55,341 bases of DNA from Dehalococcoidia bacterium. GTDB taxonomy: Bacteria; Chloroflexota; Dehalococcoidia; UBA2979. The translations under genes and the position numbers were made by a program. The notes under the pieces were generated by a model, which worked only from the letters and a program-made list of their open reading frames with translations, ran no database searches and was not told the DNA's origin. The stretch covers positions 1 through 55,341 of the forward strand of contig JBAYUZ010000002.1 of assembly GCA_041674885.1 (NCBI GenBank). The letters are read 5' to 3'. Positions 8,056 through 55,341 of the stretch are shown one piece after another (position 1 is the first letter of the stretch; each line of letters begins with the position of its first letter).

Positions 8056-8288
8056 TTCGCACCGCCGATCGCCACCGGGAACAGCCGCGCGAACTCGGCA
8101 GCCTTCGTTGCCTTGTAGTTCAGCGGGTGGCCGTCGTGCCATTCGCCGCAGTCCGCCTCTTCGATCGACATCACAGCGCCGGGGCTGATGTGATTCGGTA
8201 GGCGTGCGTTTTCGATCAGGCTCGCGAGTTCTTCGGCGCCGCACTCGTCGAAGTCGACGGTGCACAGCACGATGCGAAAGACCTTCAC
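8052..8288 (-). CDS. hypothetical protein (78 aa)
   Basis: GTG start (VKVFRIVLCTVDFDE...) in the conserved junction; ends ...IGGAK. Confidence 0.6.
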   Translation of the reverse strand: MKVFRIVLCTVDFDECGAEELASLIENARLPNHISPGAVMSIEEADCGEWHDGHPLNYKATKAAEFARLFPVAIGGAK

Positions 8289-8560
8289 TTCGCACCGCCG
8301 TTCACGACCGCGCGGCGCTTGCGGCCCGACTCGCCTTCGTGCAGGGCGGCGAGGGCGGAGCGTGATCGCGCCCTCGCCGCGACGGCCGACTCGATCATCG
8401 AGCAGAGCCACTGCGTGTAGGACTGGCGCGCGTCCTTGGCGAGCCGGTGCGCGCTCGCAAAGATCTCATGGTCGACGCGCGCATAGAGCACCGGCAGATC
8501 ATCGTACGCCCTGTGCACGCGCTTGGCCCGCGCCGCTGGGCGCTTCTTCGGTGTGGTCAT
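8285..8560 (-). CDS. RHH (CopG/Arc-like) DNA-binding protein, first gene of the leftward operon (91 aa); candidate regulator
   Basis: Only the last 91 codons of ORF 8285..10111 look coding: MTTPKKRPAARAKR...VLYARVDHEIFASAHRLAKDARQSYTQWLCSMIESAV (strand-helix-helix). Confidence 0.65.
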   Translation of the reverse strand: MTTPKKRPAARAKRVHRAYDDLPVLYARVDHEIFASAHRLAKDARQSYTQWLCSMIESAVAARARSRSALAALHEGESGRKRRAVVNGGAK

Positions 8561-8644
8561 GTCGCGAGCCCTACCATGGGCGCTTGCGACGCGCAAGGAT
8601 TTTTTCGCGGTTGCGTCGCGCTTGCAACGTGCTAGTGACCCGCG
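8561..8644. promoter_or_regulatory. divergent promoter/operator region between the RHH gene and the csf1-like gene
   Basis: Leftward: TTGCGC (rc 8591-8596), 17 nt, TAGGGC (rc 8568-8573), 7 nt, ATG. Rightward: TTGCGT (8611-8616), 16 nt, TAGTGA (8633-8638), 6 nt, GTG. Palindrome CTTGCG-ACG-CGCAAG at 8583-8597 followed by T6. Confidence 0.5.
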
Positions 8645-9604
8645 GTGACGCCGACACGCGACCTCTTTGCGCTCGCCGGATCGCCCGCGCAAGTCGGCTG
8701 CGACGCACCGACGCCGGGTTGCCCGGTCTGCGCACTGCCATGCGAGCGGAGCATGCCGTACGGGCGATGGCAAGGATCGACCTTCACCGACCAAGACAAG
8801 CTGCGCGGACACGGCCTCTCCGATCGTATCTGCGAGCCGTGCGCGTGGGTGCATTCGTGGGTTGTGCCGCCTGGCCACGCGCCGCCGGAGCCCGGAAAGA
8901 AAGGCGTCAACCTGCGCCTTTTCTGGCACGCGCACGACGAGCGCGGATACGTCTACGGCAACAAGGGCGACAAGGCCACGATCCGCGACTGGCTCCGCGC
9001 TCCAAAGGTCGGCGCGTGGTGGTCCGCGATCGCAGACAGTGGCCAGAAGCACGTTGTCCCATGGACGCCCGTGAATCGTGGCGCGTCGACGATCGTGCGA
9101 CTCGAGCAACGCAACATCGCGATTGGCGACTGGTCGCTCGTCGACGCGATGACGGCAGCGCTCACGGCCGGCGTGACCAAGGGCGAGATCGCGACTGGCA
9201 TCTACACGCCGCGAGCATGGCAGTTGGCCGAGTGTCACGTGCGCGAGCTGCAGACGCGGCCGGAGTTGTTCGGCGGGTGGTGGGAGCTGGCGCTGTGGCT
9301 TTCGCAGCGCGACGAGGCGGCAGTGGCGGATCGAATGGCGGCAGAGAAGGAGGCTCGCGATGCTCGACGAAGCGAAGGCGGACGCGGTGCGGGACGCCGC
9401 GGTGGCGGTGATGATGGCGACGCGAAGCGAATACCTGCGCGCCGGGGCAAGCGCGCTGAAGCACTGGGACCAGCTGCACGACCGGTTCCACCTGGCACTG
9501 CGAACGTCGAGCACGGCGCAACAGCTGGTGACGGCGCTGCGGAGAGGGCTGCGCCTGTCGGCGCCCAGCTCGGACTCTTCGGCGGCGGCAGTGGCACTGA
9601 CTGA
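8645..9604 (+). CDS. csf1: Csf1-like (Cas8-like) large subunit of a type IV effector complex
   Basis: ORF track 319 aa; N-terminal Cys pairs CPVCALPC...CEPCAW (zinc-finger-like); first gene of a csf2/csf3 operon; the last ~80 codons are R/G-rich and overlap the next gene. Confidence 0.55.
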   Translation: MTPTRDLFALAGSPAQVGCDAPTPGCPVCALPCERSMPYGRWQGSTFTDQDKLRGHGLSDRICEPCAWVHSWVVPPGHAPPEPGKKGVNLRLFWHAHDERGYVYGNKGDKATIRDWLRAPKVGAWWSAIADSGQKHVVPWTPVNRGASTIVRLEQRNIAIGDWSLVDAMTAALTAGVTKGEIATGIYTPRAWQLAECHVRELQTRPELFGGWWELALWLSQRDEAAVADRMAAEKEARDARRSEGGRGAGRRGGGDDGDAKRIPARRGKRAEALGPAARPVPPGTANVEHGATAGDGAAERAAPVGAQLGLFGGGSGTD

Positions 9605-9773
9605 CGCGATGGATGCCGACCCCACCGCGTACATGGACCTGCTGGAGTCTGAGATCGGGCTCGTGATGGCGCGCGCTCGGCTGGAGTCGGAGAGGCGGCG
9701 CGATGCGCGCGACGCGAGCGATCTGGCGCGGATGATGGATGCGGCGATCGAAACGCCGCGTGGAGGCGAGTGA
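9360..9773 (+). CDS. cas11: Cas11-like small subunit (137 aa, all-helical)
   Basis: ORF track; own AAGGAGG RBS 7 nt upstream; sits between the csf1-like and csf2 genes; helical Ala/Leu/Arg-rich sequence. Confidence 0.5.
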   Translation: MLDEAKADAVRDAAVAVMMATRSEYLRAGASALKHWDQLHDRFHLALRTSSTAQQLVTALRRGLRLSAPSSDSSAAAVALTDAMDADPTAYMDLLESEIGLVMARARLESERRRDARDASDLARMMDAAIETPRGGE

Positions 9774-10774
9774 TGCAGCAGCACCGAATTGAGATCATTC
9801 TGCGAGCGCAAGAGCCCATCGCACACGCGGAGGGCACGATCGGAAACAGCCAGGTGGCGATGCGGCGCAAGGTGCGATTGCCAAGCGGGCGGTGGACGAA
9901 GGTGCCTTACGTCACCGGCGACACGATGCGCCACGGGCTGCGTGAGGCCGGCACGTACGCGCTGCTCGAGGCGGCCGGCTTGCTGCACGAGGGGCCGGCA
10001 CTGACCGAGGCCGCGCTGCGTCTGCTGTTCAGCGGCGGCATGGTGCTGGGCGCGGCCGGCGACGTCGTGAAGATCGACGAAGCGCGTGCGTTCCGCGAGA
10101 TGCTGCCGCACATCTCGCTGCTCGGCGGCTGCGTCGGGAACCGCATCGAGCCCGGCAAGATCGAGGTGCGCGACGCGATGCTGATTTGCGACGAGTGGCT
10201 ACACCTCACGCCACGATGGATGATCGACTGGATGACGGCAGAGGGCGTCGAGAGCAGCGGCGCGCGCGAGCATCTGGAGATGGTCCAGCGCGTGCGCATG
10301 GACCCGTCGCTTGACCCGAAGAAGCGACTCCTTCTCTCGTCGGGCGAAGAGGCCAACGTGCAGACTCGATTGCTCGCCAGCGAGGCGGCGAGTGCGCGCG
10401 ACGACGACGCCGGCAAGGACCGCGCGAAGTCGACGATGATGCCGTTTTCGTACGAGACGATCGCGGCCGGGTCGATGTTCTCCTGGGGCATCGACTGCGT
10501 GACGCACACGCAGATCGAGCACGACACGCTGTGGGTGATGCTCGCGGCGTTCCTCGCTCGCGCTCGCGTCGGCGGAAAGAAGGGTACGGGGCATGGGCTG
10601 CTCGTGCCGGTGATCGCGCGCGGCATGGATCGTGAGATCGTGGCGACGACGCCAGACATGGACGCGCTCGACGTGACCGGCGACGCGCGTGCACCGGAGC
10701 TCCAACGCTACGTGGCGCACGTCCAGGCGCGGAAGGCGGAGATCCGCGCTGCGCTCGACAAGGTGATCGCGTGA
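9770..10774 (+). CDS. csf2: Csf2 (type IV Cas7 backbone RAMP protein)
   Basis: ORF track 334 aa; VPYVTGDTMRHGLREAG (RAMP motif) and C-terminal G-rich loop GGKKGTGHGLL; GTGA-type coupling to both neighbours. Confidence 0.7.
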   Translation: MMQQHRIEIILRAQEPIAHAEGTIGNSQVAMRRKVRLPSGRWTKVPYVTGDTMRHGLREAGTYALLEAAGLLHEGPALTEAALRLLFSGGMVLGAAGDVVKIDEARAFREMLPHISLLGGCVGNRIEPGKIEVRDAMLICDEWLHLTPRWMIDWMTAEGVESSGAREHLEMVQRVRMDPSLDPKKRLLLSSGEEANVQTRLLASEAASARDDDAGKDRAKSTMMPFSYETIAAGSMFSWGIDCVTHTQIEHDTLWVMLAAFLARARVGGKKGTGHGLLVPVIARGMDREIVATTPDMDALDVTGDARAPELQRYVAHVQARKAEIRAALDKVIA

Positions 10775-11430
10775 TCCCGCTGCGCGTCCTGGCGGATCTC
10801 GAGACGCGCCTCGTGCTCCCTGTCGAAGGCATCCACCTCGACGCGCTGCTGATGGCGGCGGTGGCGCGTCGTGACGGCCTTCCACCGCTGCGCACGATGG
10901 CGGAGGCGCGCGACGCGGAGGCGCCAGCTATTCCGCTCGCGCTGTCTGCGTGTGGCCGCTACTACCAATGCACGACGTCGATCGTGCACGTCGAAGGGCG
11001 CGAGCATCGGTGGGTGAACCGGCGCTTTCCGCTCGCCGAAGCAGTCGCGATGGGCGGCCCGACGGTGAAGCGCCTGCAGCTCTCGGCGGGGGCAGCGAAG
11101 GGCTATCGCATCCCTGTCGAGGCGACGCACGCGCGGTGCCTCACGTGGTACGCGGTCGGCGATCTCTGGGCCGTGCGCGAGTTGCTCTCGCTGGTGACGA
11201 GCCTCGGGAAGCGGCGCGCGGTAGGCGAGGGTCGCATCATCGCGTGGCGCATCGACGCGATTGACGAAACGTGGCCAGGCTTCCCTACGCATGCGTCGGA
11301 CGGCGCACCGATGCGCAACCTGCCTGTGGACGCCGTGACGAGCGGAGCGCATGTGCTGCGGGTGGGGCGCGTGCGCCCACCGTACTGGTCGCGCACGGAC
11401 GAGGAGATGGTGGCGGCGCCGTGCCTCTGA
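10771..11430 (+). CDS. csf3: Csf3 (type IV Cas5-like RAMP protein)
   Basis: ORF track 219 aa; IHLDALLMAAVARRDGLPP N-terminus and LGKRRAVGEGRIIAW G-rich loop; directly follows csf2. Confidence 0.6.
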   Translation: MIPLRVLADLETRLVLPVEGIHLDALLMAAVARRDGLPPLRTMAEARDAEAPAIPLALSACGRYYQCTTSIVHVEGREHRWVNRRFPLAEAVAMGGPTVKRLQLSAGAAKGYRIPVEATHARCLTWYAVGDLWAVRELLSLVTSLGKRRAVGEGRIIAWRIDAIDETWPGFPTHASDGAPMRNLPVDAVTSGAHVLRVGRVRPPYWSRTDEEMVAAPCL

Positions 11431-12143
11431 TCATCACGCCGCGGCATACAGATCGCGATCTGGCGCACTGGCGCACGTGCGAAAAGGTGGACGCTCTGAC
11501 CGCGCAGAGGCGCGCGCCACGGCTGCGCGAGATGGCCGCTCGTGCGGGCGACGTGGCCGCGGCGTTCGCTCGCGGGGGCGGATACGCCGGGGTGTCGTGG
11601 GGGAAAGACTCTGTTGTCGTCGCGTCCATTCTCGCCGAGCATCGCACCGATCTCCCGCTGGTGTGGGTTCGCGTCGATGCGTGGGAGAATCCCGACTGCG
11701 AGTTGGTACGTGACGCGTTCCTCGCGCGCTTCGATGTGCGGTATCACGAGATCAGAGTGGCAATCGGACCCAACCGGCACGGCGGGACTCTGTCGCTCGG
11801 ATTCGCGGAGGCTGCGGAGCGATTCGGAGCCCGATACATTTCGGGCGTGCGCGCAGACGAGAGTGCCATTCGCCGCGCGTCAATGGGCCACCACGGAATC
11901 ACGACAAAAAACACGTGTCGGCCGATCGGCAAGTGGAGCACGGCCGACGTGTTCGCGTACTGCGCGCTGATGGATCTGCCGCTGCATCCCGCATACGGCT
12001 ACACGATGGGCGGCATCTACGATCGGATGCGCCTGCGCACCGCATCGCTCGGAGGCGTCCGCGGCGCAGGCCACGGGCGCGCAGAGTGGGAGCGCGTCTA
12101 CTACGGCGTGCGACACGAGGGGACGCAGCGATGGCTTCCGTGA
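11421..12143 (+). CDS. CysH-like PAPS reductase / PP-loop ATP-pyrophosphatase family protein
   Basis: SWGKDSVVV (PP-loop SGGKDS-like), GVRADESAIR, CRPIGKWSTADVFAYCALMDLPLHPAY; GTG at 11421 overlaps the csf3 stop (start uncertain). Confidence 0.8.
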   Translation: MPLIITPRHTDRDLAHWRTCEKVDALTAQRRAPRLREMAARAGDVAAAFARGGGYAGVSWGKDSVVVASILAEHRTDLPLVWVRVDAWENPDCELVRDAFLARFDVRYHEIRVAIGPNRHGGTLSLGFAEAAERFGARYISGVRADESAIRRASMGHHGITTKNTCRPIGKWSTADVFAYCALMDLPLHPAYGYTMGGIYDRMRLRTASLGGVRGAGHGRAEWERVYYGVRHEGTQRWLP

Positions 12144-12874
12144 CGCTCACCGACGCCGACTGGTCCGCGCCGTGCGTGTCGTTCGATCGCGAGACGCTAT
12201 GTGTAGGCACGCCGATCGCGCTCGACGGCTACCGACATCCACTCGTCATGCGCGAGTTGGCGTGGCTACACGCCGCGCTCACCGGCGCGATCGGGCGCGG
12301 GCACGCGAAGCCATCGCACTGCACTCCGGCCGACTGGTCGCTGGTGCCATGGGATGCGCCGAGCGGCTGGGCGGTCGCGTGGTGGTCAGAGGCGGACGCG
12401 GCTGCGCTCTCTGCGACGGTGCGCCCGTCACGCATCGGCGCCGTCGAGTGCAGCCTCGCGATCGGCGCACGCGTACGCGTGCACGTCCCGCCCGCGTACG
12501 TACCCGGCGCGCACCTCGTGCGCCTATCGCTGCGTACGCCGCTCGTCGTGACCAGCACGCAGAGCGACGGCCGCAAGCGCAGCGCGCAGCACGCGACGAG
12601 CGCGACGATGCTGTCCGCCGCATGGACGCTCGCGCGCAAACTCGGCGTGCATCCGCAAGCGCTCGCGGTATCCGTGCTCGACGCGCGCACAACGAGCGGA
12701 GGTGTGGACTATCGCGGCAAACTCGGCCGCGTGGAGGGGCTTGCCGGCACCGTCGATCTCGCGTGCAACGCGCCCGCGCGGTGGCTCTTTGAGTGCGCGT
12801 CGCGCGGGCTTGGACTCGGCGCGCGCACGGCGTACGGGTGCGGCCGCGTGGAGACAACGACGCTCGCGCGTTGA
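12131..12874 (+). CDS. Cas6-like RAMP protein (247 aa)
   Basis: ATG with GAGGGG 8 nt upstream; C-terminal glycine-rich loop GLGLGARTAYGCGRV preceded by GTVDLACNAPARWLFECAS, as in Cas6 endoribonucleases. Confidence 0.5.
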   Translation: MASVTLTDADWSAPCVSFDRETLCVGTPIALDGYRHPLVMRELAWLHAALTGAIGRGHAKPSHCTPADWSLVPWDAPSGWAVAWWSEADAAALSATVRPSRIGAVECSLAIGARVRVHVPPAYVPGAHLVRLSLRTPLVVTSTQSDGRKRSAQHATSATMLSAAWTLARKLGVHPQALAVSVLDARTTSGGVDYRGKLGRVEGLAGTVDLACNAPARWLFECASRGLGLGARTAYGCGRVETTTLAR

Positions 12875-14448: not shown

Positions 14449-14642
14449 CCGCCCTCCGCCTCGAGCCGCCCACCACTTCGCAAGCCGCGGAGATCGAGGC
14501 GCTCCGCCGCCGCGCGGAGCGCGACTGCCGCTGCCACCTGTGCGGCGCGTGCTTCGCGCGGATGCGTGATGAGAGCGCGGCGCGACCGTACGTGAAGACC
14601 GAGAGCGCGAGTGATCACAACCGGTGGAAGGGGAGTTACTGA
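14445..14642 (+). CDS. hypothetical protein (65 aa)
   Basis: ATGA overlap; MTALRLEPPTTSQAAEIEALRRRAERDCRCHLCGACF... Confidence 0.5.
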   Translation: MTALRLEPPTTSQAAEIEALRRRAERDCRCHLCGACFARMRDESAARPYVKTESASDHNRWKGSY

Positions 14643-15637
14643 TGACGACTGCGATTCAGCGATACACGGTGACGGTCGAGAAACTGGCCGAGTACGACGC
14701 GGCCTACAAGGATCGCGCGTTCGACTGCGCGACCGCCGAGGGCATGCGCCTTGCGGTGACGGCTCGCGCTGAACTGCGCACGGCGCGCGTATCCGTCGAG
14801 GCCGAGCGCGTCGCACTGAAGGCGCCGCTGCTGGCCGCGTCTCGCGAACTGGACGCAGAGGCGGCGCGTGTGACGGCGCGCATCGAAGCGCTGGAGATGC
14901 CGATCGACGACGCGATCAAGGCGGTCGAGAAGGCGAAGGCCGAAGCGAAGGCAGCGAAGGAGCGCGCCGAGGTCGCACGGCTCAAGGCCATCGCCGACGA
15001 AGAGGCGCGCGTCGAGCGCGAGCGAGTGGCTGCGGAACTCGCGGCCGAGAGGGCGGCTGCTGAGAAGGCGCGCGCCGAGGCCGAAGCGGAGCGTGAGGCG
15101 GCGCGACGTGAGCGCGAGGCGGCGGAGCGCAAGATCGCCGAAGAGCGCGCGGCAGAGGCGGAGGCGCGTCGCATCCGCGAAGATGCGGATCGGGCCGACC
15201 GCGAGTCGGCTGCCGAGGCTGCGCGACGCGAGCGCGCGGAGGCTGACCGCGTGGCCCGTGTCGAGCGCGAACGACTCGCGGCGGAGGCGAAGCAAGAGGC
15301 CGACCGACGGGCGCGCGTCGAAGCGGATGAGCGCGCGGCGCGCGAACGTGAGGCGGCGGAGGCGCGGCGCGTCGAGGACGGGCGCATCGCCGAAGAGCGG
15401 AAGCGGCTCGCAGCGGAGCGTGCGCGCATCGACGCAGAGAACGAAGCGGCTCGCGCGAAGGCGAAGGCGGACCGCGAGGAGATGATCGCGAAGTACGTCG
15501 CTACCGTCTCGCTCCGCGATGCGGCGCAGCGGGCTTGCGACCTGCTCGTGAGCAAGGGCTACGGCGAGGACCCGGCGACGCGAGCGCTCGCGGCTGCACT
15601 CGATCGAGACGCGGCGCAGCGCGAGGCCGCAGAGTGA
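14642..15637 (+). CDS. coiled-coil protein with long E/R/A-rich low-complexity core (331 aa)
   Basis: ATG after GGGGAG; globular N- and C-terminal parts flank ~200 aa of AEAERE/RRERAEA repeats. Confidence 0.65.
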   Translation: MTTAIQRYTVTVEKLAEYDAAYKDRAFDCATAEGMRLAVTARAELRTARVSVEAERVALKAPLLAASRELDAEAARVTARIEALEMPIDDAIKAVEKAKAEAKAAKERAEVARLKAIADEEARVERERVAAELAAERAAAEKARAEAEAEREAARREREAAERKIAEERAAEAEARRIREDADRADRESAAEAARRERAEADRVARVERERLAAEAKQEADRRARVEADERAAREREAAEARRVEDGRIAEERKRLAAERARIDAENEAARAKAKADREEMIAKYVATVSLRDAAQRACDLLVSKGYGEDPATRALAAALDRDAAQREAAE

Positions 15638-20855: not shown

Positions 20856-21839
20856 ATGGCAGTCGAGACTCAGCAGGTAGAAATCCGTCGCGTCCGCATC
20901 GACGGCGGCACGCAGATCAGGGCCGACCTCTACGATCCAGCGGTGCTCGCGGAGTACGCGGAGGCGCTCAAGTCGGGGGCAAAGTTTCCGCCGATCCACG
21001 TCGTCGAGGAAGGAGACGACCTCTGGCTCGTCGATGGCTTCCATCGGCACGCCGCCCACCTCCGCGAGAAGCGCGGCGTCATTGACGCGCAGGTCAAGCA
21101 GGGCACTCGGCGCGATGCGATCCTTGCTGCCGTAGGCGCCAACCGGACCCACGGACTGCGACGGACGAACGCCGACAAGCGAGCCGCTGTCGCTCTGCTC
21201 TTGGCGGACGCTGAATGGTCGGGGAAGTCGAACCGGTGGATCGCGGAGCGGTGCGGCGTCAGCGACCACTTCGTCGCAGCGCAGCGCCCTGAGCCCGAGG
21301 CAACTGCGCGAAAACGCAGTACAGACATTCCAGATTCCGAGCCCGTCAGGCGCGAGGGCAGGGACGGGAAGCCGCGCCCGGCGACGGCGAGCAAGTCGCC
21401 CGTAGCGGCGGCCCGCGCCGTCGCGGTGCCGGCCGCGCGAGCGCCAGCCCCCGCGGCGCTACTCGACGCCATGGGGCGCGAGGTACCGGCCGCGCTCGCG
21501 CCGTTGTGGCGCGCGCTCGTCGAGTCGTACGACGTCACCAGCGCCGCCGTCGATGCGCTGCGCGCAGCCAGCACCGCACAGCGCGCTGCCGTGACGCGAC
21601 TGGCGAAGGGCCGCGAGGGCACCGTGATGCTGCACGCCACGGTACAGGCGTGGGGCGTTGGGCAGGCATGCTCTGCAGCTCGCCACGCCGCAGACGAGAC
21701 GCGGCCGCACATCGTGTGCCCAGAGTGCGACGGGACGGGCGGCCGGGCTGGTGCGTGGTGTACGCACTGCGGCGCATGCGGATGGCTCACGGCGTCAGCG
21801 CTCGAGCGGCGCGCGCGAGGGGCGAAGGTGCGCCGATGA
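20856..21839 (+). CDS. ParB/Srx-like N-terminal domain protein with C-terminal DnaJ-type zinc finger
   Basis: ORF track 327 aa; LVDGFHRHAA ParB-box motif; C-terminal CPECDGTGG...CTHCGACG. Confidence 0.75.
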   Translation: MAVETQQVEIRRVRIDGGTQIRADLYDPAVLAEYAEALKSGAKFPPIHVVEEGDDLWLVDGFHRHAAHLREKRGVIDAQVKQGTRRDAILAAVGANRTHGLRRTNADKRAAVALLLADAEWSGKSNRWIAERCGVSDHFVAAQRPEPEATARKRSTDIPDSEPVRREGRDGKPRPATASKSPVAAARAVAVPAARAPAPAALLDAMGREVPAALAPLWRALVESYDVTSAAVDALRAASTAQRAAVTRLAKGREGTVMLHATVQAWGVGQACSAARHAADETRPHIVCPECDGTGGRAGAWCTHCGACGWLTASALERRARGAKVRR

Positions 21840-23461
21840 CCGTCACGCTGCGACCGTACCAAGACGAATGCATCGCTTCGATCGAGCGCGAGCACGGGGA
21901 GAAGGGCCTGCGATCGACGCTGATCGTACTCGCGACGGGACTCGGGAAGACGACGATCTTTGCGGAGTGGGCGCGGCGTCGACTCGAACGTCACGGCGGG
22001 CGCGTGCTGGTCCTCGCGCACCGCGAGGAACTCGTTCAGCAAGCGGCCGACCGCATGCGCATGCAGGTCCCCGGTGTGCAGGTTGGGATCGAGATGGCTG
22101 GCCGCGTGACGTCGACGCTGATGCCGGAGTCGATTGTGGTCGCCAGCGTGCAGACGCTCGGCAAGCTCGCGCGCCTGAAAAAGTTCGATCCGTGGCAGTT
22201 CACGTCGCTCATCATCGACGAAGCGCATCACTCGTGCGCTGACGGATACCGCACGATCATCGACTATTTTTCGGCTGCGCAAGTGCTCGGCGTGACCGCT
22301 ACGCCCGACCGTCTCGACGGGGTAGGACTTGGCGGGATCTTCGATTCGTGCGCGTACCGCATGGAGATGCAAGAGGGCATCGCGGGCGGCTACCTCGTGC
22401 CGATCATCGCACGCCGAATCGTCTGCGAGTCGCTGGATCTATCGCGGCTGCGCACTGTGCGTGGTGACCTGTCGGAGAAGGATCTCCAGCAGGCGATGTC
22501 AGTCGACAAGGTGCTGCACGAGATGGCCGGTCCGCTCGTGCGCGAGGCGGGCGATCGTTCAACGATCGTGTTCACGCCGGGCGTCCAAGTTGCACACGCG
22601 CTCGTCGATGTCCTCGCGGCGTACACCAGCGCGCGCGCCTGCGCGATCGATGGCACCACCGATTCGACGGTGCGGCGCGAGGTGCTTGCCGCCTACGCTG
22701 CCGGTGACATCCAGTTCTTGATCAACTGCGCCGTGTTGACCGAGGGCTTTGACTCTCCGCGCACGTCATGCGTCGCTCTCGGCCGGCCGACGAAATCGCG
22801 CGCGCTGATGACGCAGTGTATCGGCCGCGGAACTCGGCCGGCGGAGGGGAAGAGCGATCTACTCGTCGTCGACTTCGCCGGCATCGTCGGGCGCCATGTA
22901 CTCGTCGCGCCGCTCGACGTGCTCGGCGGTGAGGATATGCCACCGCTCGTGCGCGAGCGCGCCCTAGAGCTCGTGGACCAGGGCGAGTCCCTGGACCGGG
23001 CGAGGGCGCAGGCGGAGAGAGAGGCGACCGAAGCGGAGCGTGCACGGAAGGCGCGCGAGCGTCTTGCAGAGGAAGAGGCCGCCCGTCGCAAGGCCGCCAA
23101 GGTCTCGAGCGAGGCACGGTACGCGGCGCGCAACGTGGACCCGTTCGGGACTAAGATACTGGCGATCCCCGAGGATCGGGGAGGCGAGCGCGCGAGCGAT
23201 CGGCAGCGGGAGATCCTTGCGCAGTTCGGCGTCGAGATCCCGAACCTCTCAGCGGAGCAAGCGCAGGCGGCTATCGGCTCCCAGATCGCGCGTCGCAAGC
23301 ACGGACTCGCATCGTTCAAGCAGGCGCGTCTCCTTCAAAAATATGGGTATTCGCCCGACTTGAGCAAGGCCGATGCGTCGATCGTGATCTCCGCAATCGT
23401 CGCAAACGGATGGTCGCGGCCCGCGAAAGATCCGCTTGACGGTCGCGCGCCCGTCGGCTAG
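21836..23461 (+). CDS. SF2 DEAD/DEAH-box helicase (541 aa)
   Basis: ATGLGKT (motif I), DEAH (II), TATP (III), QCIGRGTR (VI); ATGA overlap with the ParB-like gene. Confidence 0.85.
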   Translation: MTVTLRPYQDECIASIEREHGEKGLRSTLIVLATGLGKTTIFAEWARRRLERHGGRVLVLAHREELVQQAADRMRMQVPGVQVGIEMAGRVTSTLMPESIVVASVQTLGKLARLKKFDPWQFTSLIIDEAHHSCADGYRTIIDYFSAAQVLGVTATPDRLDGVGLGGIFDSCAYRMEMQEGIAGGYLVPIIARRIVCESLDLSRLRTVRGDLSEKDLQQAMSVDKVLHEMAGPLVREAGDRSTIVFTPGVQVAHALVDVLAAYTSARACAIDGTTDSTVRREVLAAYAAGDIQFLINCAVLTEGFDSPRTSCVALGRPTKSRALMTQCIGRGTRPAEGKSDLLVVDFAGIVGRHVLVAPLDVLGGEDMPPLVRERALELVDQGESLDRARAQAEREATEAERARKARERLAEEEAARRKAAKVSSEARYAARNVDPFGTKILAIPEDRGGERASDRQREILAQFGVEIPNLSAEQAQAAIGSQIARRKHGLASFKQARLLQKYGYSPDLSKADASIVISAIVANGWSRPAKDPLDGRAPVG

Positions 23462-35842: not shown

Positions 35843-35913
35843 GTCACGCTGGGGCAACGGTAGCCCGGCGGCCTCATAAGCCGCAGCTCGTGGTTCGATT
35901 CCACGGCGTGACC
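35843..35913 (+). tRNA. tRNA with CAT anticodon (Met, or Ile2 if lysidine-modified)
   Basis: Hand-folded cloverleaf: acceptor GTCACGC/GCGTGAC, D arm GGGC-AACGGTA-GCCC, anticodon arm GCGGC-CTCATAA-GCCGC, T arm CGTGG-TTCGATT-CCACG. Confidence 0.8.
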
Positions 35914-35975
35914 CCCAGGGCCATCAACACGTGCGCGGCGCTTTCCAAAGCCGTGACCAGAGGAGACGCGACGAC

Positions 35976-38803: not shown

Positions 38804-40321
38804 ATGACCGCCGAAGTATCAGCCCTGCAACGCGTCCGCTTCATCGGCGAGAGCACGTTCAACACGTCGCGAATCGCCGATATCGCGCAGTTCGTCGACG
38901 TGCCCGCGATCGAGAAGACGCCGATCTTCACTGGCCTCGAAGCGCATCAAGAGCCGGAGGTCGTGCAGACGCACGTGCACGGCTACCGCGACTCAAAGAT
39001 GGTCAAGGGCCTGCGCTCGTGCACGCTCGACTTCTCCATGCACCTCGCCGGCACCGGCAACATGCACAACGGCGCGACGCTGCCGCCGCTGCCGACGCTC
39101 ACCGACTGGCAGATGTCGCTGCTCGAGTTCCTGATGGGCGGCAGCGAGACGGTGACGCTCGGCACGCCTGGCACCGCGTGCACGGTCGAGAGCACGGGCA
39201 CGACGACGCGCGCGATCGTGATGAAGACCAACACGCTCAGCGTGGCGCCGCCGGGCTGCGCCTTCGCCTGCGTGATGCCGTCCGGGCTCATCGAGGCGCG
39301 CGAGATCCGCAGCTACTCGGCCGGCGTCATCGTGCCGAAAATCGCCTTCTCCGACGTGCCGGCGGAAGACTCGCCGATCTACTTCGGCACGACCTTTCAT
39401 CTCATCAACGGGCTCGGTGCTGACCTCGCGTCGATCCAGGCGATCTGCGAAGGCGTCGCGCTCGAGGATTCGTTCCTCGGGATGGGCATGTGTGGCACCT
39501 ACGGAATCGACGTGGCGCCCGGCGCGCTCGCGAAACTGACCGTGAAACTGATGGGCGCGGCGTGGAGCAAGAAGCCCGAGGGGACCGCGCTCACCGCGCC
39601 CGACGCGTTCACGAACTTCGCACCACTCACCAACATGAGCAGCGAACTCCTCGTCGGAAAGGTGCAGACGCGCGCGACGTGGACGCGCTCGACGACGACG
39701 TGCACCGTCACGAGCTACGCGCACGGCATGGCCAGCGGCGAGACAGTCACGCTCGTCAAGAGCAACGACATCACCGCGACGCCGCTCGGCAACGAGGTCA
39801 TCACGGTCACGGGCGTCGACACGTTCACCTTCGCGTGCGCCAACGCCGGCATCACGACGGGCGGCACGCTAACGTACATCGCGTGTCAGCTGCGCAATCA
39901 GATCCGGCACTCTGCGAGCACGTGGCAACCCGGCCTGGTCAACGTGCCGATCACGTCTCCCGAGGGACTCGGCAACAGCAACATCACCGGATGGAAGCGC
40001 GGCCGTTCACGCGCCGTGACGGGCTCCTTCACGGCCTACGACGAGCCCAGCATCCCCTCGCTCATCGCCGACGAGAATGTCGAGAGCTGGCAGGACGCCG
40101 ACACCAACGAGACCGACCTCGCGATCTACCAGCAGATCGGAATGACGACACGCGGCATCGTACTCATCACGGCACCGACGGTTCAGATCAACGTCGTGCC
40201 GACGCGCGCGGACGCCAACGGTCTTTACGCGCAGGTCGTCAGCTGGAGCGGCCGCAACGACCTCAGCTCCGCGGAGACCAGCGACGTCTCCTCAAGCGCG
40301 CAACGGATCACGGTGTTCTGA
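38804..40321 (+). CDS. major tail (tube-like) protein (505 aa)
   Basis: ORF track; immediately upstream of the chaperone pair and the tape measure gene. Confidence 0.5.
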   Translation: MTAEVSALQRVRFIGESTFNTSRIADIAQFVDVPAIEKTPIFTGLEAHQEPEVVQTHVHGYRDSKMVKGLRSCTLDFSMHLAGTGNMHNGATLPPLPTLTDWQMSLLEFLMGGSETVTLGTPGTACTVESTGTTTRAIVMKTNTLSVAPPGCAFACVMPSGLIEAREIRSYSAGVIVPKIAFSDVPAEDSPIYFGTTFHLINGLGADLASIQAICEGVALEDSFLGMGMCGTYGIDVAPGALAKLTVKLMGAAWSKKPEGTALTAPDAFTNFAPLTNMSSELLVGKVQTRATWTRSTTTCTVTSYAHGMASGETVTLVKSNDITATPLGNEVITVTGVDTFTFACANAGITTGGTLTYIACQLRNQIRHSASTWQPGLVNVPITSPEGLGNSNITGWKRGRSRAVTGSFTAYDEPSIPSLIADENVESWQDADTNETDLAIYQQIGMTTRGIVLITAPTVQINVVPTRADANGLYAQVVSWSGRNDLSSAETSDVSSSAQRITVF

Positions 40322-40995
40322 TGGAAGACGCGACCAAGCAACTCGAGTGTTACGCGTCGTTCGATCCCGCGATCGATCGTGACGCGATGGGCGCAGCGTT
40401 CGATGCGCACTTCGGCCGATTCGGTGCCGCCGAGATCGCGCGCGCCGGCACCCGCGATCCGTCGCTCATCAAGTTCCACCCCGGCAAGCGCGCCTGCAAG
40501 TTCGTGCTGCGGCCGCTGACGCTCGCCGAGCGCTTCGACTGCGATGCCGTCGTCAGCACCGAGCATCGGCTCGCGCGCGCGCTTGGCTACGCGCTGGTGC
40601 GTGCCGAGCTCCACGCGCCGATGAGCGCGACGGCGACGATCCTCTTCGCGCGCGACACGCAGCCGGGCTTCACGCTCGAGATGCTCACCGAGCTAATGGG
40701 CCTCGTCGGCGTAGAGACCATCTACGAGATCGGCGCGGTGGCGTACACGCGGAGTCGCCTTGGCCCTTTCGACGTGCCCTTTGCGCCGCTGCTGCTTACC
40801 TCGGCGCAAAGGCAAGTGACGCAGCTCCTACACCATGCGGATTCCCTCGCGCGGCAGAAGTCCGACACCCAGACCACAAAGCAGGAGTCGCCATCGCAAT
40901 CGGCTGCGAACGAGACGTCCGCGCCGCCTGGCGATGCGACTGCGCCGGAGAGCGACACGGCGCCGCCCGATCCTGCTCCACCACCAACAAGCTGA
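40321..40995 (+). CDS. tail assembly chaperone-like protein (224 aa)
   Basis: TGATG junction; MEDATKQLECYASFDPAIDRD...; disordered P/T/S-rich tail; upstream of the tape measure gene. Confidence 0.55.
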   Translation: MEDATKQLECYASFDPAIDRDAMGAAFDAHFGRFGAAEIARAGTRDPSLIKFHPGKRACKFVLRPLTLAERFDCDAVVSTEHRLARALGYALVRAELHAPMSATATILFARDTQPGFTLEMLTELMGLVGVETIYEIGAVAYTRSRLGPFDVPFAPLLLTSAQRQVTQLLHHADSLARQKSDTQTTKQESPSQSAANETSAPPGDATAPESDTAPPDPAPPPTS

Positions 40996-41003
40996 GCCAG
41001 GTC

Positions 41004-41276
41004 GTGGCGAACCTCCACACGTCGATCGCGGAGGTCACCGGTTCGGAGCCCGTGACGTGCCCGTGGCGCGTCTACGAGGATCCCGTCGTGCAGGCCGGTC
41101 GCGTGCTCGCGTCGCGCATCGAGTCCGGCGTCGTCGACATCGACCGGCAACTGTCCGTGGTCGTCGAGGCCGCGGATGTCATCCGCAACGTCAGCTCGCA
41201 TCTGATGATGCTGGACCTGCGCGCGAAGCGTGAGCAGCGCACGAGCGAAGAGAACATGCGCCGAGGTGCGTCGTGA
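41004..41276 (+). CDS. hypothetical protein (90 aa), possible second chaperone / frameshift extension
   Basis: ORF track; its frame is -1 relative to 40321..40995 and I traced it open to about 40790, with no ATG/GTG/TTG before 41004. Confidence 0.45.
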   Translation: MANLHTSIAEVTGSEPVTCPWRVYEDPVVQAGRVLASRIESGVVDIDRQLSVVVEAADVIRNVSSHLMMLDLRAKREQRTSEENMRRGAS

Positions 41277-42826
41277 GTGAGTTCGACGTCACGGGGCGCA
41301 TTCGGTACACGGATGAGGGCGCGAGCGCAACGCTGACCAAGGTGACGGGCGCCGTCGATGCGCAGACTGTCGCGCTCGCGAAGGAGAACGCCGAGTACGT
41401 GCGGCTCCGCGCGGCCGCTGAGCAGACGATCAAAGCGCAGCAGATGTTCGGCGCGCAGACGCAGACCATCACGACGACGACGGCAACCGCGACCACCAAC
41501 GTCGGGCAGTTCGGATCGGCCGTCGGACTCGCGGGGCAGGCGATTGGGCGCGTGAATCCCGCGATGGGCGGCCTCGTCACGATGGCCGGTTCCGCGCTCG
41601 GCGCGATCCAAGCACTCACGACGGCGGGCATGGGGCCGTTCGGCATCGCGCTCGCCGCCACGTCTCTGGCGCTCAGCGCCGCCACCGCGCTCTACGCGGC
41701 CTTCGGTGACGAGCAGCGAGACGCCGCGGATGCAGCGGATGAACTGACCGCGTCTCTCTACGAGCAGAACCGCGCCAACGATCTCGCCGGAGAGGGCCGC
41801 ATGCGGGTCCTTGAGGCGGAGGAACTTCGGCTCCAGCGCACCGTCGACACGCTGCGCGCCAGCCACGGCGACGCGGTGCTGCTCTACCAACAGGAGCAAC
41901 TACTCAACGAGGCGCGGCAGCGTCTCATGCGCGAGCGGCAGACCGACACAACGACCGCAGCGCCGCGCGCGCGGTCCGAGGGCGAGGTGCTCGCCGAGAT
42001 GGCTCGGCTGAGCGAGGGCCTCACCAGCGAGGGCCGCACGATTCAGGCGCCGACCGGTGGCACGGCAGGCGAGGCGGCGCGCAAGGCTCGCGCTGACGCG
42101 GCTCGGCAGCAAGCGGAAGAGGACGCGCAGGGCCGCGAGGCCGACTCCGCAGCGCGTCTCGCGATGCTCATCGAGGACATGGACGCGGAGGCCGAGGTCC
42201 GCGCCATGATGCGCGAGCGCGAGATCAACGAATCCAACGCAGCCAAGGACCAGTCGATCGAGATCGAGCGGGCGCGCGTCGCTGGCGTGAAAGCCGCGCT
42301 CGATGCCGAGACGGCGCTACGGGCGAAGGCCGCGAAGACGCAGCAGCAGATCCTCGACACCACAGGCCAGGCGCACACGCTCCTCGCCAGCGTCATCGAG
42401 GCCAGCGCCGGCAGCAGCGAGAAGTCGCAGAAGGCGAAGACGCAAGCGCTCGCCGCGGCGTCCATGGTCCAGTCCGGGATCGAGATGGCCGTCGAGATCG
42501 CCCGCATCGCGCAGAGCTACCCGGACCCCGTCGGCATGGCGACGCACGCGATCGGCGCCGCAAACTTCGCGGTGGCGATTGGTGTCGCTGCCGCAGCGGC
42601 CGGTGGCGGTGGCTCAGCGCCCCCGTCGGGCGGCGCCAGCGTTCCGGCTGCGTCGTCGCCCGGCGGCGGGCCGAGCGGGCCTCCTGCGGGCGCACAGGAG
42701 CCAGGCGGCAACGTCTACAACATCACTCTCGGCGGTGGCGGCGTCGTGTACGCTGCCGACCGCAACGAACTCATGCGCACGATCGCGGATGGCGTGCGGG
42801 CCGCTGACACGCGGAGGGGTCGCTGA
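41273..42826 (+). CDS. tape measure protein (517 aa)
   Basis: ORF track; Gly/Ala-rich hydrophobic segments (GLAGQAIGRVNPAMGGLVTMAGSALGAIQAL...) plus long helical regions; canonical position. Confidence 0.75.
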   Translation: MSEFDVTGRIRYTDEGASATLTKVTGAVDAQTVALAKENAEYVRLRAAAEQTIKAQQMFGAQTQTITTTTATATTNVGQFGSAVGLAGQAIGRVNPAMGGLVTMAGSALGAIQALTTAGMGPFGIALAATSLALSAATALYAAFGDEQRDAADAADELTASLYEQNRANDLAGEGRMRVLEAEELRLQRTVDTLRASHGDAVLLYQQEQLLNEARQRLMRERQTDTTTAAPRARSEGEVLAEMARLSEGLTSEGRTIQAPTGGTAGEAARKARADAARQQAEEDAQGREADSAARLAMLIEDMDAEAEVRAMMREREINESNAAKDQSIEIERARVAGVKAALDAETALRAKAAKTQQQILDTTGQAHTLLASVIEASAGSSEKSQKAKTQALAAASMVQSGIEMAVEIARIAQSYPDPVGMATHAIGAANFAVAIGVAAAAAGGGGSAPPSGGASVPAASSPGGGPSGPPAGAQEPGGNVYNITLGGGGVVYAADRNELMRTIADGVRAADTRRGR

Positions 42827-43689
42827 TGGCTCGCGATCTCTACAGCGCCGCGTGGGACTTCGGCCGCCTCAATCTCGGAGCGGTGAGCGGCGCCAACGCG
42901 GCCGTGTTCGCGAGCGGCACCGGTGGGCCAGCGGGGAACGCCGGATTCGCGTCCGGCATGTACATGCACGGCAACGTCGGCATGACGGGCGGCACAGAGA
43001 TCGATGGCGTGCCGCTGCTGCAGTTTGCCGACGACCTTGACGCGCTCCTCTCTGGGAGTTCACTCGCGGTGCAGTTCTCGCGCTCGCAACTGCGCTACAC
43101 GATCTCGAGCGCGAACGCGTTTGCCGTGACGTGGACCGGTGCGCAGGGCGTGGCGCTCCGCGATATCCTCGGCTTCGAGGCGAACCTCTCGAGCGCAGCA
43201 ACGCACACGTCGACGAAGCGGCCGAAGTATCTGATCTGCACACGGCACGCGGGGCAGTCCGCGGTGAAGGCATCGCACGAGCCCGGCGGCCGCATCCAGC
43301 ACGCGGAAAGCGAAAGCGGCTTCCAGTACGACATCGGCCCCGACGAGCTCGCCACGTACGCCAACTGGACGCAGCCGTACGAAACGAACATCGGACCCAC
43401 CGACGCCGATTGGGCTGGCGACTTCGCGGTCGGCGGCGCACCGATGCGGCGCACCGATGTCGGCGCCGCGACCAAGGTCTACTGGACGTGGGAGGATTTC
43501 TGGAAGCACGTCCGCGCAACGCTGCCGTTCGCGCTCGTCGACCAGGCTGCCGGCAGCAACGAGGGCGACGTGTACAAGCTGCACGGCGACGCTGCGCACT
43601 TCGATCCGACGCGGAAGACAGTCGACTTCGACGGCCACTGGATGCCCGCGATCAAAGCGCTCTACAAGGGCGCGAGCATGGAGTTTTAG
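42826..43689 (+). CDS. distal tail-like protein (287 aa)
   Basis: ORF track; first gene after the tape measure gene. Confidence 0.45.
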   Translation: MARDLYSAAWDFGRLNLGAVSGANAAVFASGTGGPAGNAGFASGMYMHGNVGMTGGTEIDGVPLLQFADDLDALLSGSSLAVQFSRSQLRYTISSANAFAVTWTGAQGVALRDILGFEANLSSAATHTSTKRPKYLICTRHAGQSAVKASHEPGGRIQHAESESGFQYDIGPDELATYANWTQPYETNIGPTDADWAGDFAVGGAPMRRTDVGAATKVYWTWEDFWKHVRATLPFALVDQAAGSNEGDVYKLHGDAAHFDPTRKTVDFDGHWMPAIKALYKGASMEF

Positions 43690-47150: not shown

Positions 47151-47296
47151 CCATCGCCGATCGCATCACCGTGCGCCTCAGCGCCTCGCTACTCGCGCGC
47201 CTCGACGCGTACTGCGCTCGTGAGAAAAAGCGCACCGGCTACCCCGTCACCAGGGCGGACGCGGTGCGGGCGCTGATTGAGGGGGCGGCGAAGTGA
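47147..47296 (+). CDS. RHH (CopG-like) protein (49 aa)
   Basis: Hand translation MTIADRITVRLSASLLARLDAYCAREKKRTGYPVTRADAVRALIEGAAK; ATGA and GTGA overlaps. Confidence 0.55.
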   Translation: MTIADRITVRLSASLLARLDAYCAREKKRTGYPVTRADAVRALIEGAAK

Positions 47297-48606
47297 AGCT
47301 GCGCGACTACCAAGAGCGAGGCGTGCGGGAGATCGTGGACGCGCTCGCAACGCATGGCCGCGTGCTCGCGGTGTCGCCAACCGGCAGCGGCAAGACCGTG
47401 ATGGGCGCGGCCGTCATCACCGGCGCCTGCTCGACCGCGCGCGTGCTGTGGATCGCGCATCGCCGCGAGCTGCTCGCGCAAGCACGCAAGGCGCTGAAGT
47501 CGGCCGGGCTCGCTCGTGTCGGCATCCTCTCGGGGACGGCGAAGGAGGACACCGACGCCCCGGTGCTCGTCGCGTCCATCGACACGCTGCGACGCACGGA
47601 CCTCGCGCGCTTCGATCTCGTCGTCGTCGATGAAGCGCACCGCGTCGCGGCGAAGTCGTATCAGGACGTGCTCGCGGCGCTGCCGGGTGTGCCGGTGCTG
47701 GGGCTGACGGCGACGCCGCAGAGGCTCGACGGTAAGCCGCTGTCGGACACGTTTGCGCACCGCGTCGTGGTCGCGCTGAATGCGGAGCTGTTCGCGTCGA
47801 AGTACCTCGTGAAGCCAGTCACGTACGGAGTGCCCAAGCACATCGCGCGCGCGATGCGGCGCGGCGTGACCAGCGGCGACGGCGTAAGCGACGCGCTCAA
47901 CACCATGTTGATGCGGCCGAAGCTGATGGGCGACGTCGTCGAGGAGTGCGCAAAGCACGCGCCGGGCGCACGCACGATCGTATTCGCCGCGAGTCGCACG
48001 CACGCGAAAGCACTGGCCAAGCGCTTCACCAAGGCAGGGCGACCGACCGCGTATCTCGACGGCGACACACCGGACGGCGAACGCTTCGACATCCTCGAAC
48101 GGTTCGCGGCCGGCGCGATCGAAGTCGTCGTCAACGTCGACATCTTGACCGAGGGCTACGACTTGCCCGCGGTGAAGTGCATCGTGCTCGCGCGGCCCAC
48201 GAAGTCGCGGGCGCGCTACCTGCAGTATTGTGGCCGCGCGTCTCGTCCGCACAATGGGCGCGGCGCCGTCGTCCTCGACCACGCCGGGAACTGGCTCACT
48301 CACGGGTTGTGCTGGGAAGACCGTGAGTGGCGGGACGGGCGTGAGAAGGGCAGCGGCGACGCGCCGTGCTGGCGGTGCGAGTGCGGGCACATCAACCCGG
48401 TCGGCACGACCGAATGCGCGGAGTGTGGAGCGGCGCGGCCGAGGTCGGAGCGAGAGGAGGCGGACGAGCGTGCGCAGCTTGAGCGCATCGAGGCGGGCGC
48501 GAGCGCGAAGGCGGCGCTGGAGAAGCGGCTGCGTGAGTTTGCGGCATCGAAGGGGATGGCGCGCGCGGAGGCGGATGAGTGGGTGCGGAAGGCGGTTGCG
48601 GCGTGA
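47293..48606 (+). CDS. second SF2 DEAD/DEAH helicase with C-terminal zinc finger (437 aa), paralog of 21836..23461
   Basis: PTGSGKT, DEAH, TATP, QYCGRASR; CWRCECGHINPVGTTECAECG zinc finger. Confidence 0.85.
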   Translation: MKLRDYQERGVREIVDALATHGRVLAVSPTGSGKTVMGAAVITGACSTARVLWIAHRRELLAQARKALKSAGLARVGILSGTAKEDTDAPVLVASIDTLRRTDLARFDLVVVDEAHRVAAKSYQDVLAALPGVPVLGLTATPQRLDGKPLSDTFAHRVVVALNAELFASKYLVKPVTYGVPKHIARAMRRGVTSGDGVSDALNTMLMRPKLMGDVVEECAKHAPGARTIVFAASRTHAKALAKRFTKAGRPTAYLDGDTPDGERFDILERFAAGAIEVVVNVDILTEGYDLPAVKCIVLARPTKSRARYLQYCGRASRPHNGRGAVVLDHAGNWLTHGLCWEDREWRDGREKGSGDAPCWRCECGHINPVGTTECAECGAARPRSEREEADERAQLERIEAGASAKAALEKRLREFAASKGMARAEADEWVRKAVAA

Positions 48607-55183: not shown

Positions 55184-55290
55184 GCGACGAACTGCAGCGC
55201 GATCTGCGGCGTGAGCGACGCACAGCAGAACAGAAGACGGCGCACCTCATGCGGCTGTTGGCGGAAGCGTCGACGCGGAGGCTCTCGTGA
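55180..55290 (+). CDS. small basic protein (36 aa)
   Basis: Hand translation VSDELQRDLRRERRTAEQKTAHLMRLLAEASTRRLS; GTGA overlaps at both ends; extends into the terminal repeat. Confidence 0.35.
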   Translation: MSDELQRDLRRERRTAEQKTAHLMRLLAEASTRRLS

Positions 55291-55341
55291 GCTGCGCCAC
55301 CGTCGCGTTCGATGCGCTGCTCGACGACATCGCCGCCGGTC
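55219..55341. repeat. Terminal direct repeat, copy 2 (identical to 1-123)
   Basis: Same 123-nt string as the window start. Confidence 0.95.

Follow-up and report, generated by a model that had tools for sequence, protein, structure and literature searches.

A phage-borne type IV-B-like Csf cassette with a Cas6-family gene and an overprinted Csf1 tail carrying a candidate sliding-clamp-binding motif

The window analysed here, the whole 55,341-nucleotide stretch of contig JBAYUZ010000002.1, is a phage genome in which six overlapping genes are encoded on the plus strand between positions 8645 and 12874. By gene content this locus is a type IV-B-like CRISPR-Cas module, consisting of csf1-cas11-csf2-csf3 and a cysH-like gene, with a sixth gene of the Cas6 family. 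Its most informative feature, which was missed in a preliminary description made from the sequence alone, is a Csf1 tail that is overprinted on cas11 and carries a QLxLF motif of the clamp-binding type. We propose that this tail could tether the Csf ribonucleoprotein (RNP) to the β sliding clamp, as part of a non-adaptive, array-less system, and we hold this reading, which is predicted from the motif and its conservation, with about even confidence.

The Csf1 tail is overprinted on cas11 and keeps a QLxLF motif

The large subunit gene csf1 (8645..9604, plus strand) encodes a protein of 319 aa, which matches the PADLOC model Csf1_0_IV (typeIV_Cas8) with an E-value of 1.8e-16 and TIGR03114 with 6e-4, the latter below the curated cut-off. 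The preliminary description had let cas11 start after the end of csf1. However, the cas11 ATG at 9360, which is preceded by the Shine-Dalgarno-like sequence GAAGGAGG, lies 245 nt inside the csf1 open reading frame (ORF), and csf1 stays open to 9604 in another frame. The two genes share the positions 9360..9604 on the plus strand, where the Csf1 tail is read 2 nt out of step with cas11. In the overlap the GC content at third codon positions (0.85) follows the cas11 frame, and the csf1 frame gives 0.86/0.73/0.55 for the three codon positions. As this is the codon-position pattern of cas11, the Csf1 tail is an overprinted extension. A Csf1-Cas11 fusion produced by frameshifting was also considered and nothing was found in its support.

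In the AlphaFold model the folded domain of Csf1 comprises residues 1-245, with a predicted local distance difference test (pLDDT) score above 90. Residues 246-319, about 75 codons past the folded domain, form a coil with pLDDT 50-64 and are predicted to be disordered. The window protein ends with ...AAPVGAQLGLFGGGSGTD, where QLGLF at residues 308-312 (9566..9580, plus strand), 7 residues from the C-terminus, is a candidate β-sliding-clamp-binding motif. Q-L-x-L-F at the C-terminus is an established clamp-binding consensus and is also found in transposases of mobile elements (PMC4549789). By its sequence and position, residues 308-312 of 319, QLGLF would correspond to the flexible C-terminal peptide of clamp-binding proteins.

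The position of the motif was compared in 110 full-length Csf1 homologues that are 36-84% identical. The pattern Qxx[LIVM]F occurs within the last 45 residues in 88 of them and in the remaining ~280 residues in 3, and for the strict QLxLF the corresponding numbers are 61 and 0. The same was obtained with 81 further long representatives of 50%-identity clusters, where the motif is terminal in 58 and located elsewhere in 1. The consensus is Q-L-[S/G/A/D]-L-F-(G), often at the very C-terminus, with a minority of Q-L-x-[LI]-P-G-[FI], and the csf1 ORF nearly always ends 0-25 codons past the motif. In 45 of 50 distinct loci the two genes overlap by 150 nt or more, and 37 of these 45 keep a clamp-type motif. 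A gene overlap of ~240 nt is in this way kept across sequences that are 30-35% identical, to encode a disordered linker and a short motif.

The tail might also be no clamp ligand at all, if it resulted from the overlap with cas11 or served to dock a different partner, and the cassette would then work like the plasmid-borne type IV-B systems, perhaps independently of replication. In line with this, the tail lies wholly inside the cas11 overlap, the motif is short, and its binding to the clamp is predicted. A second tail element, AEALGP with the invariant L274, coincides with the conserved KHWD codons of cas11 and is for this reason probably an overlap by-product. For the QLxLF motif the evidence points in the other direction. 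In an alignment of Cas11 from 12 loci together with those of Skermania phage SPI1 and Rhodococcus jostii RHA1, the cas11-frame residues beneath the motif change non-conservatively (PSSDSS, GSSASS, PSSRYS, NSSRCF, PKDACR), whereas the csf1 frame keeps Q-L-x-L-F. Moreover, one related locus (L010) has the motif over another stretch of cas11, and the Cas11 proteins of SPI1 and RHA1, whose loci have no such overlap, contain no Ser-rich segment at the motif position. As judged from these alignments, selection acts on the csf1 frame at the motif, and the motif is not a shadow of cas11. Taken with the terminal enrichment and the regular end of the ORF shortly past the motif, this makes a tail without affinity for the clamp rather unlikely.

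Both the tail and the motif are absent from the five canonical type IV-B Csf1 proteins examined, four from plasmids (R. jostii RHA1, R. opacus B4, Gordonia and M. aubagnense) and one from Skermania phage SPI1, which are 186-245 aa long. A full-text literature search of limited coverage found no paper that describes a clamp motif on Csf1. Within the clade, csf1 and cas11 overlap by only 47 nt in a sub-clade of five viral contigs (L050, L051, L054, L055 and L056), and both the tail motif and the Cas6-like gene are missing there; these contigs encode a second protein resembling 3'-phosphoadenosine 5'-phosphosulfate (PAPS) reductase 2-3 kb downstream.

Gene content of the cassette

Six co-oriented genes had already been recognized at or near the present coordinates on the plus strand. 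The ORFs were confirmed, and each of them has profile support, from searches of the PADLOC, NCBIfam, Pfam and PHROGs libraries, or structure support. Downstream of the csf1 start, cas11 (9360..9773) encodes a small subunit of 137 aa that matches typeIV_Cas11 of PADLOC over profile positions 5-118 of 120 (E 1.5e-5). It is followed by csf2 (9770..10774), the Cas7 backbone subunit of 334 aa (Csf2_0_IV 5.7e-45; TIGR03115 1.9e-11; phrog_22746 2.6e-35), csf3 (10771..11430), a Cas5 protein of 219 aa (Csf3_0_IV 5.1e-40; TIGR03116 9.6e-18), and a cysH-like PP-loop gene with a GTG start (11421..12143, 240 aa; PF01507 4.9e-7; phrog_2302 1.4e-19). The Cas6-family gene (12131..12874, 247 aa) closes the series; all six lie on the plus strand. 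Besides the 245 nt shared by csf1 and cas11, the overlaps amount to 4 nt for cas11/csf2, 4 nt for csf2/csf3, 10 nt for csf3/cysH-like and 13 nt for cysH-like/cas6, and such an overlapping string of six genes is consistent with translational coupling.

The identities that the preliminary description had proposed for Csf2/Cas7, Csf3/Cas5 and the PAPS-reductase-like protein, and had staked on profile or structural similarity, are borne out by these matches, and its Csf1-like and Cas11-like subunits were likewise recovered. The scores for TIGR03115 and TIGR03116 are far below the NCBIfam equivalog cut-offs and the Csf proteins are therefore divergent members of their families. For Csf2 the best PADLOC model is the generic type IV model (Csf2_0_IV) and the next models are labelled IV-A; for homologues of csf3 the precomputed annotation gives PF27782 Csf3. 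The AlphaFold model of Csf1, built with 66 homologues, has a single significant match in the PDB, 7xg1_A of a type IV-A Csf complex (E 6.2e-5). In the homologue alignment Csf1 has an invariant Cys4 cluster formed by C26, C29, C63 and C66.

The CysH-like protein scores 30.4 bits with PAPS_reduct (PF01507), for which the gathering cut-off is 22.5, and a sequence search of it against the PDB gave no matches. The motifs SxGKDS and GxRxxE...R are invariant among 50 aligned family members, and no Cys is conserved in these 50 sequences (at most 52%). This agrees with the description of CasCysH as not being a reductase (PMC8175902). No helicase is encoded in the cassette, and no match to Cas1 or Cas2 was found among the cassette proteins, the remaining genome having been scanned in part.

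The sixth gene belongs to the Cas6 family

In the preliminary description the protein encoded at 12131..12874 was an extra member of the repeat-associated mysterious proteins (RAMP). It is a RAMP protein, but not a generic one. PF10040 (CRISPR_Cas6) is matched by 10 of 23 members of its family, the best with an E-value of 2.2e-6. The AlphaFold model of the protein has a pLDDT of 90.2, and 40 of the 41 Foldseek matches in the PDB at E <= 0.001 are Cas6-family structures (Cas6, Cas6e/Cse3, Csf5 or Cascade Cas6 subunits), the sole exception, at rank 34, being a Cmr2-Cmr3 entry. At the top of the list stands 3qjj_A (E 3.7e-9), the TM scores of the best matches are 0.5-0.6, and the Foldseek probability is 1.00 for many Cas6 structures. 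Cas6 proteins of P. furiosus and T. thermophilus are among the matches, and so are the type IV Cas6 chains 6njy_A and 7xfz_H. As modelled, the protein has the double ferredoxin/RNA-recognition-motif fold with a C-terminal G-rich loop. His47, His58 and the G-rich loop GLGLGARTAYGCG are invariant even in relatives that are 25-30% identical. A profile search of the Cas6-like sequence against the PDB returned no matches.

Of 42 complete related loci, 26 contain a Cas6-like homologue, and its place varies: ahead of csf1, between csf3 and cysH, or behind cysH. Pinilla-Redondo et al. noted no more than 12 IV-B loci that have Cas6 (PMC7038947); in the present clade the Cas6 subunit is a regular and not an exceptional component. 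The earlier classification as a type IV-B-like module thus holds for the csf1-cas11-csf2-csf3 genes with a cysH-like gene and for the missing array, helicase and adaptation genes, but not for the absence of Cas6, and since the sixth gene is of the Cas6 family the locus is a variant of canonical IV-B.

CRISPR arrays and RNA partners

The absence of a CRISPR array, as described before, was confirmed across the 55-kb window with four search methods (Tandem Repeats Finder, direct-repeat search, Rfam and a k-mer scan). The window and 60 related loci were searched with Tandem Repeats Finder, repeat search and k-mer chains, and 49 of the 51 distinct related loci contain no array or mini-array. Only the loci L017 (14 repeats) and L038 (6 repeats) carry arrays, both within ~6.5 kb of the module. 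A repeat in L042 was rejected as an array, as the repeat is coding.

Phage-encoded Cas6-family proteins that process a pre-CRISPR RNA of the host or of a co-resident element would offer another explanation, in which the CRISPR RNA (crRNA) loads the Csf complex for a type IV-A-like silencing by CRISPR interference, or in which host crRNAs are sequestered as an anti-CRISPR. It would account for the retained Cas6 fold with its invariant His pair and G-rich loop and for the arrays close to the module in L017 and L038, and crRNA sequestration has been raised for IV-B (PMC7038947). Nevertheless, the nearly complete lack of arrays in the clade speaks against guides supplied in this way. The array of L038 directly adjoins a Cas12f-like gene and most likely belongs to that system, the array-bearing L017 has no Cas6-like gene, and the spacers of both match no fetched locus beyond 16-17 nt. 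In addition, the only IV-B structure is a filament assembled on heterogeneous, non-CRISPR RNA, according to the available part of the source (PMC7937560). Guided interference by crRNAs supplied in trans is on this evidence unlikely.

In L038 (IMGVR_UViG_3300036045_000023, 9898-12310) the Cas12f/Cas12u1-like gene encodes 665 aa (PADLOC 1.5e-41), directly follows the IV-B-like module and is itself followed by the array with the repeat GGAAAGAGCTACGTGATCGCTCGGAGATCACGGC. This arrangement resembles a phage-borne miniature type V system beside a type IV-B module.

No RNA gene was detected in or beside the cassette: Rfam gave only a tRNA-Met in the window, and the flanks of the cassette are not conserved. 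The best-conserved 96-nt stretch, located in csf2, folds no better than its shuffles (z = -0.61).

Distribution and mobility of the cassette

Relatives of the cassette are widespread. An alignment-based scan placed the same Csf1 family on no fewer than 36 viral contigs of IMG/VR, many with a length of 40-105 kb, and it occurs also on 14 contigs from metagenome-assembled genomes (MAGs) or genomes and on several Logan/ENA contigs. The alignment was required, as an IMG/VR scan with the single protein gave no match. An exhaustive search with a Csf1 profile yielded 980 representatives at 50% identity, 238 of them at E <= 1e-30. At the DNA level no similarity of the cassette to any of 50,697 phage records was detected.

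Homology of the cassette with L002 and L060/L061 extends from the csf1 start codon (window 8646) to the cas6 stop codon (12875), and the flanks are unrelated or rearranged. Judged by these alignments, what moves is precisely the 4.2-kb cassette, with no noncoding sequence on either side, and no RNA gene travels with it, because the homology runs from the csf1 start to the cas6 stop between unrelated flanks. The cassette is found in three different genomic contexts. In L060 (8397-10837) it is 89% identical to that of the window at the nucleotide level and begins 4 nt before the end of a gene for a 484-aa phage integrase, in L002 it is part of an early operon, and in the window it is transcribed divergently from that operon. 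When the cassette changes place, its gene borders thus stay exact. That it is a decaying CRISPR-Cas remnant carried passively by the phage, as the missing array, nuclease, adaptation genes and helicase could suggest, is very improbable, since all six overlapping ORFs are intact, no frequent frameshifts are seen in relatives, the Cys4 cluster, PP-loop, His pair and G-rich loop are conserved in a family of this size, and the borders are kept exactly across the moves.

In relatives the cassette is surrounded by typical phage early genes, namely those for RecT, YqaJ, a PDDEXK nuclease, DNA methylases and Mom, with the integrase directly upstream in L060. The gene for the sliding clamp, dnaN, lies less than 6 kb away from the cassette in two divergent lineages, L017 and L046/L047/L057. 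In L046/L047/L057 the phage dnaN lies ~1 kb from the cassette and its product is 38% identical to the L017 protein.

On the L017 contig (Myxococcales MAG contig CALFEQ010000168.1, 494-4001 and 11395-12870) the 14-repeat array, with a 36-nt repeat and spacers of 35-39 nt, abuts the element-borne dnaN. This gene encodes all three β-clamp Pfam domains and is followed by a C5 DNA methylase. The Csf module of L017, ~6.5 kb downstream, has neither Cas6 nor CysH, and a radical SAM protein follows instead. On the 85-kb contig L022 (4480-7834 and 13189-15757) the module is flanked by genes for Mom, DNA_methylase and DUF1643, and the opposite strand carries two PAPS_reduct genes, one with DUF3440, and an N6_N4 methylase, which resembles a DNA-modification neighbourhood.

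A possible role at replicating DNA

In the clamp-tethering reading proposed here, the Csf complex would assemble on RNA as in the Mycobacterium IV-B structure (PMC7937560), and the Cas6-family subunit may serve to cap the filament or to nucleate it on an RNA that has no gene beside the cassette. The Csf1 tail would tether the complex to the β sliding clamp, for the window phage the DnaN of the host, and in some related phages the clamp could be the phage-encoded DnaN. The RNP and the PP-loop enzyme would thereby be concentrated on clamp-loaded, actively replicating DNA and would not be spacer-guided there. This would suit a role in replication-linked conflict, with phage DNA, host DNA or the DNA of competing mobile elements as the replicating target, and the action could consist in binding or in a modification of nucleic acid by the PP-loop enzyme. 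Besides the tail and its motif, the early-gene neighbours of the cassette in relatives, the dnaN of two related lineages and the lack of a dnaN in the window count in favour of a link to replication.

Several points weigh against tethering. The clamp binding is predicted solely from a short linear motif, and about 20% of the tailed homologues have degenerate variants (QLGLW, QLGFSF, QxRLPGF) or no recognisable motif. The co-location of dnaN with the cassette is limited to 2 of ~50 lineages. Further, the conserved His pair of Cas6 implies a defined RNA substrate, which was not found, and any biological role is speculative, including the host takeover, competition between mobile elements or counter-defence suggested in the preliminary description.

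The regular presence of Cas6, the overlap and tail that are kept, and an exact cassette free of RNA genes are together reasons to consider guide-independent localisation for IV-B. In the broader form of this idea the clade would not be spacer-guided at all, but would be a clamp-guided Csf machine whose Cas7/Cas11 filament, Cas6 cap and CysH-like enzyme act on DNA that is being replicated; this extension we put forward tentatively, as somewhat short of an even chance. If this were so, it would open the first mechanistic way into type IV-B function and show a CRISPR effector whose targeting has passed from a guide to a replication-factor motif. For a large clade the finding provides a concrete and cheaply testable interaction hypothesis, the binding of the Csf1 tail to DnaN.

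The phage genome and the surroundings of the cassette

The window ends carry an exact direct repeat of 123 bp (1-123 = 55219-55341), which indicates a circularly closed assembly or terminal redundancy, and the window is for this reason taken as a complete genome of ~55.2 kb. In profile searches a large terminase, portal, head protease and major head protein were identified, so that from the earlier label of a complete tailed phage the complete phage stands, whereas no tail gene was identified by profile in the window. Large ORFs of 505, 517, 287 and 877 aa lie at the expected tail-gene position (38804-46323) and are poorly annotated; those of 505, 517 and 877 aa have no PHROGs or Pfam match, and the virion module beyond the head is essentially unannotated. 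Directly after the major head protein gene, within the structural module, a tRNA-Met (CAT) gene is located at 35843-35915.

The early region encodes a PDDEXK/YqaJ-type exonuclease, an AAA_24 ATPase and two superfamily 2 (SF2) helicases. The latter are paralogues 25 kb apart (21506-23461 and 47293-48606), both with ResIII, DEAD and Helicase_C domains and both matching phrog_16 with ~1e-89. Neither is of the DinG or RecD type, and they lie 9-35 kb away from the cassette. A 337-aa early-region protein (14624-15637) has a highly repetitive, coiled-coil-like sequence with many Ala, Glu and Arg residues and matches no family. Nine other early ORFs gave no Pfam match and ten further ORFs gave AAA_24 only. 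The window contains no dnaN and no integrase of the L060 type, and no polymerase was found among the window proteins scanned.

The divergent intergenic region (8561..8644) separates the cassette from a leftward early gene (8285-8560, minus strand). This gene had been assigned to the ribbon-helix-helix proteins, an assignment that was not supported, as its product has no Pfam match at E <= 0.01. Read directly, the intergenic sequence has the palindrome CTTGCGACGCGCAAG with a T run behind it (8583-8607). A scan for terminator-like combinations of a hairpin and a T run gave this 1 case with 1.1 expected, which is not significant, and an operator motif shared by the two promoter regions that flank the cassette was not found above chance. 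The region 8561..8644 is not conserved in relatives, in which homology begins at 8646.

The TerL of the window phage is only 26% identical to the terminases of B3/Mu-like phages of Proteobacteria. The MAG labels of related contigs cover many phyla, which may reflect binning.

Comparison with known systems

To our knowledge, type IV-B is the one CRISPR-Cas subtype without an assigned function. Reviews as late as 2024 still describe its role with the words 'remains to be characterized' (PMC11656645). Published type IV loci include examples from prophages and from some phages, as well as IV-B loci of archaeal viruses (PMC7038947, PMC11656645, PMC10848311), and the phage location alone is therefore not new. 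The preliminary description had presented phage carriage as the unusual point of this locus, but by itself this is not unusual enough in view of these cases, the module of phage SPI1 and the 36 IMG/VR contigs with the same Csf1 family.

The closest comparison by gene content is with the plasmid-borne type IV-B loci of Rhodococcus jostii RHA1 pRHL3 and Mycobacterium sp. JS623, which have the same five gene families. They also share the lack of an array, adaptation module, nuclease and helicase, the carriage on a mobile element (PMC7038947, PMC8175902), and a CysH-like protein with a PP-loop and without a catalytic Cys. However, the window cassette has an additional Cas6-family gene, and its Csf1 is ~100 aa longer, with the overprinted QLxLF tail, whereas the plasmid Csf1 proteins have 186-219 aa and are tailless. 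In the window the cysH-like gene is co-oriented inside the operon, while the plasmid cysH is divergent. The Csf2 proteins are only 23-25% identical, and the carriers of the window clade are phages.

Type IV-A systems (Csf1-Csf2-Csf3-Csf5/Cas6 with DinG and an array) resemble the cassette in having a Cas6-family subunit, in the Csf1 fold (7xg1_A) and in the structures matched by the Cas6 model (6njy_A, 7xfz_H). In contrast to them, the window cassette has no DinG and no array, and contains cas11 and cysH-like genes.

Two other viruses carry IV-B-like effector genes together with a CysH-like gene. One is the Bathyarchaeia 'Fuxiviridae' virus (PMC10848311), which according to the available part of the source has a mini-array, unlike the window phage, and for which this part mentions neither Cas6 nor a Csf1 tail. 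The other is Skermania phage SPI1 (KR011061, Orf40-44), a cultured actinophage in which the module (L001, 3846-7479) is unannotated and all genes are labelled hypothetical. Its Csf2, Csf3 and CysH-like proteins match the window proteins by BLASTP with ~29% identity (28.7% for Csf2 by tblastn), and its Csf1 (Orf40) and Cas11 (Orf41) were assigned by position and size only. The SPI1 Csf1 differs from that of the window, as it has 245 aa, overlaps cas11 by only 14 nt and has no QLxLF, and no Cas6-like match was found in the fetched locus.

Outside the CRISPR-Cas systems, Tn7 TnsE is a clamp-tethered mobile-element protein. Insertion sequence (IS) transposases with a C-terminal QLxLF use the β clamp to reach replicating DNA (PMC4549789), and they share with the window Csf1 that the Q-L-x-L-F stands at the C-terminus of a mobile-element protein behind a variable linker. 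Those proteins are, however, transposases or target selectors, whereas here the motif is located on the large subunit of an RNP built on a Cas7 filament, for which binding to the clamp is predicted.

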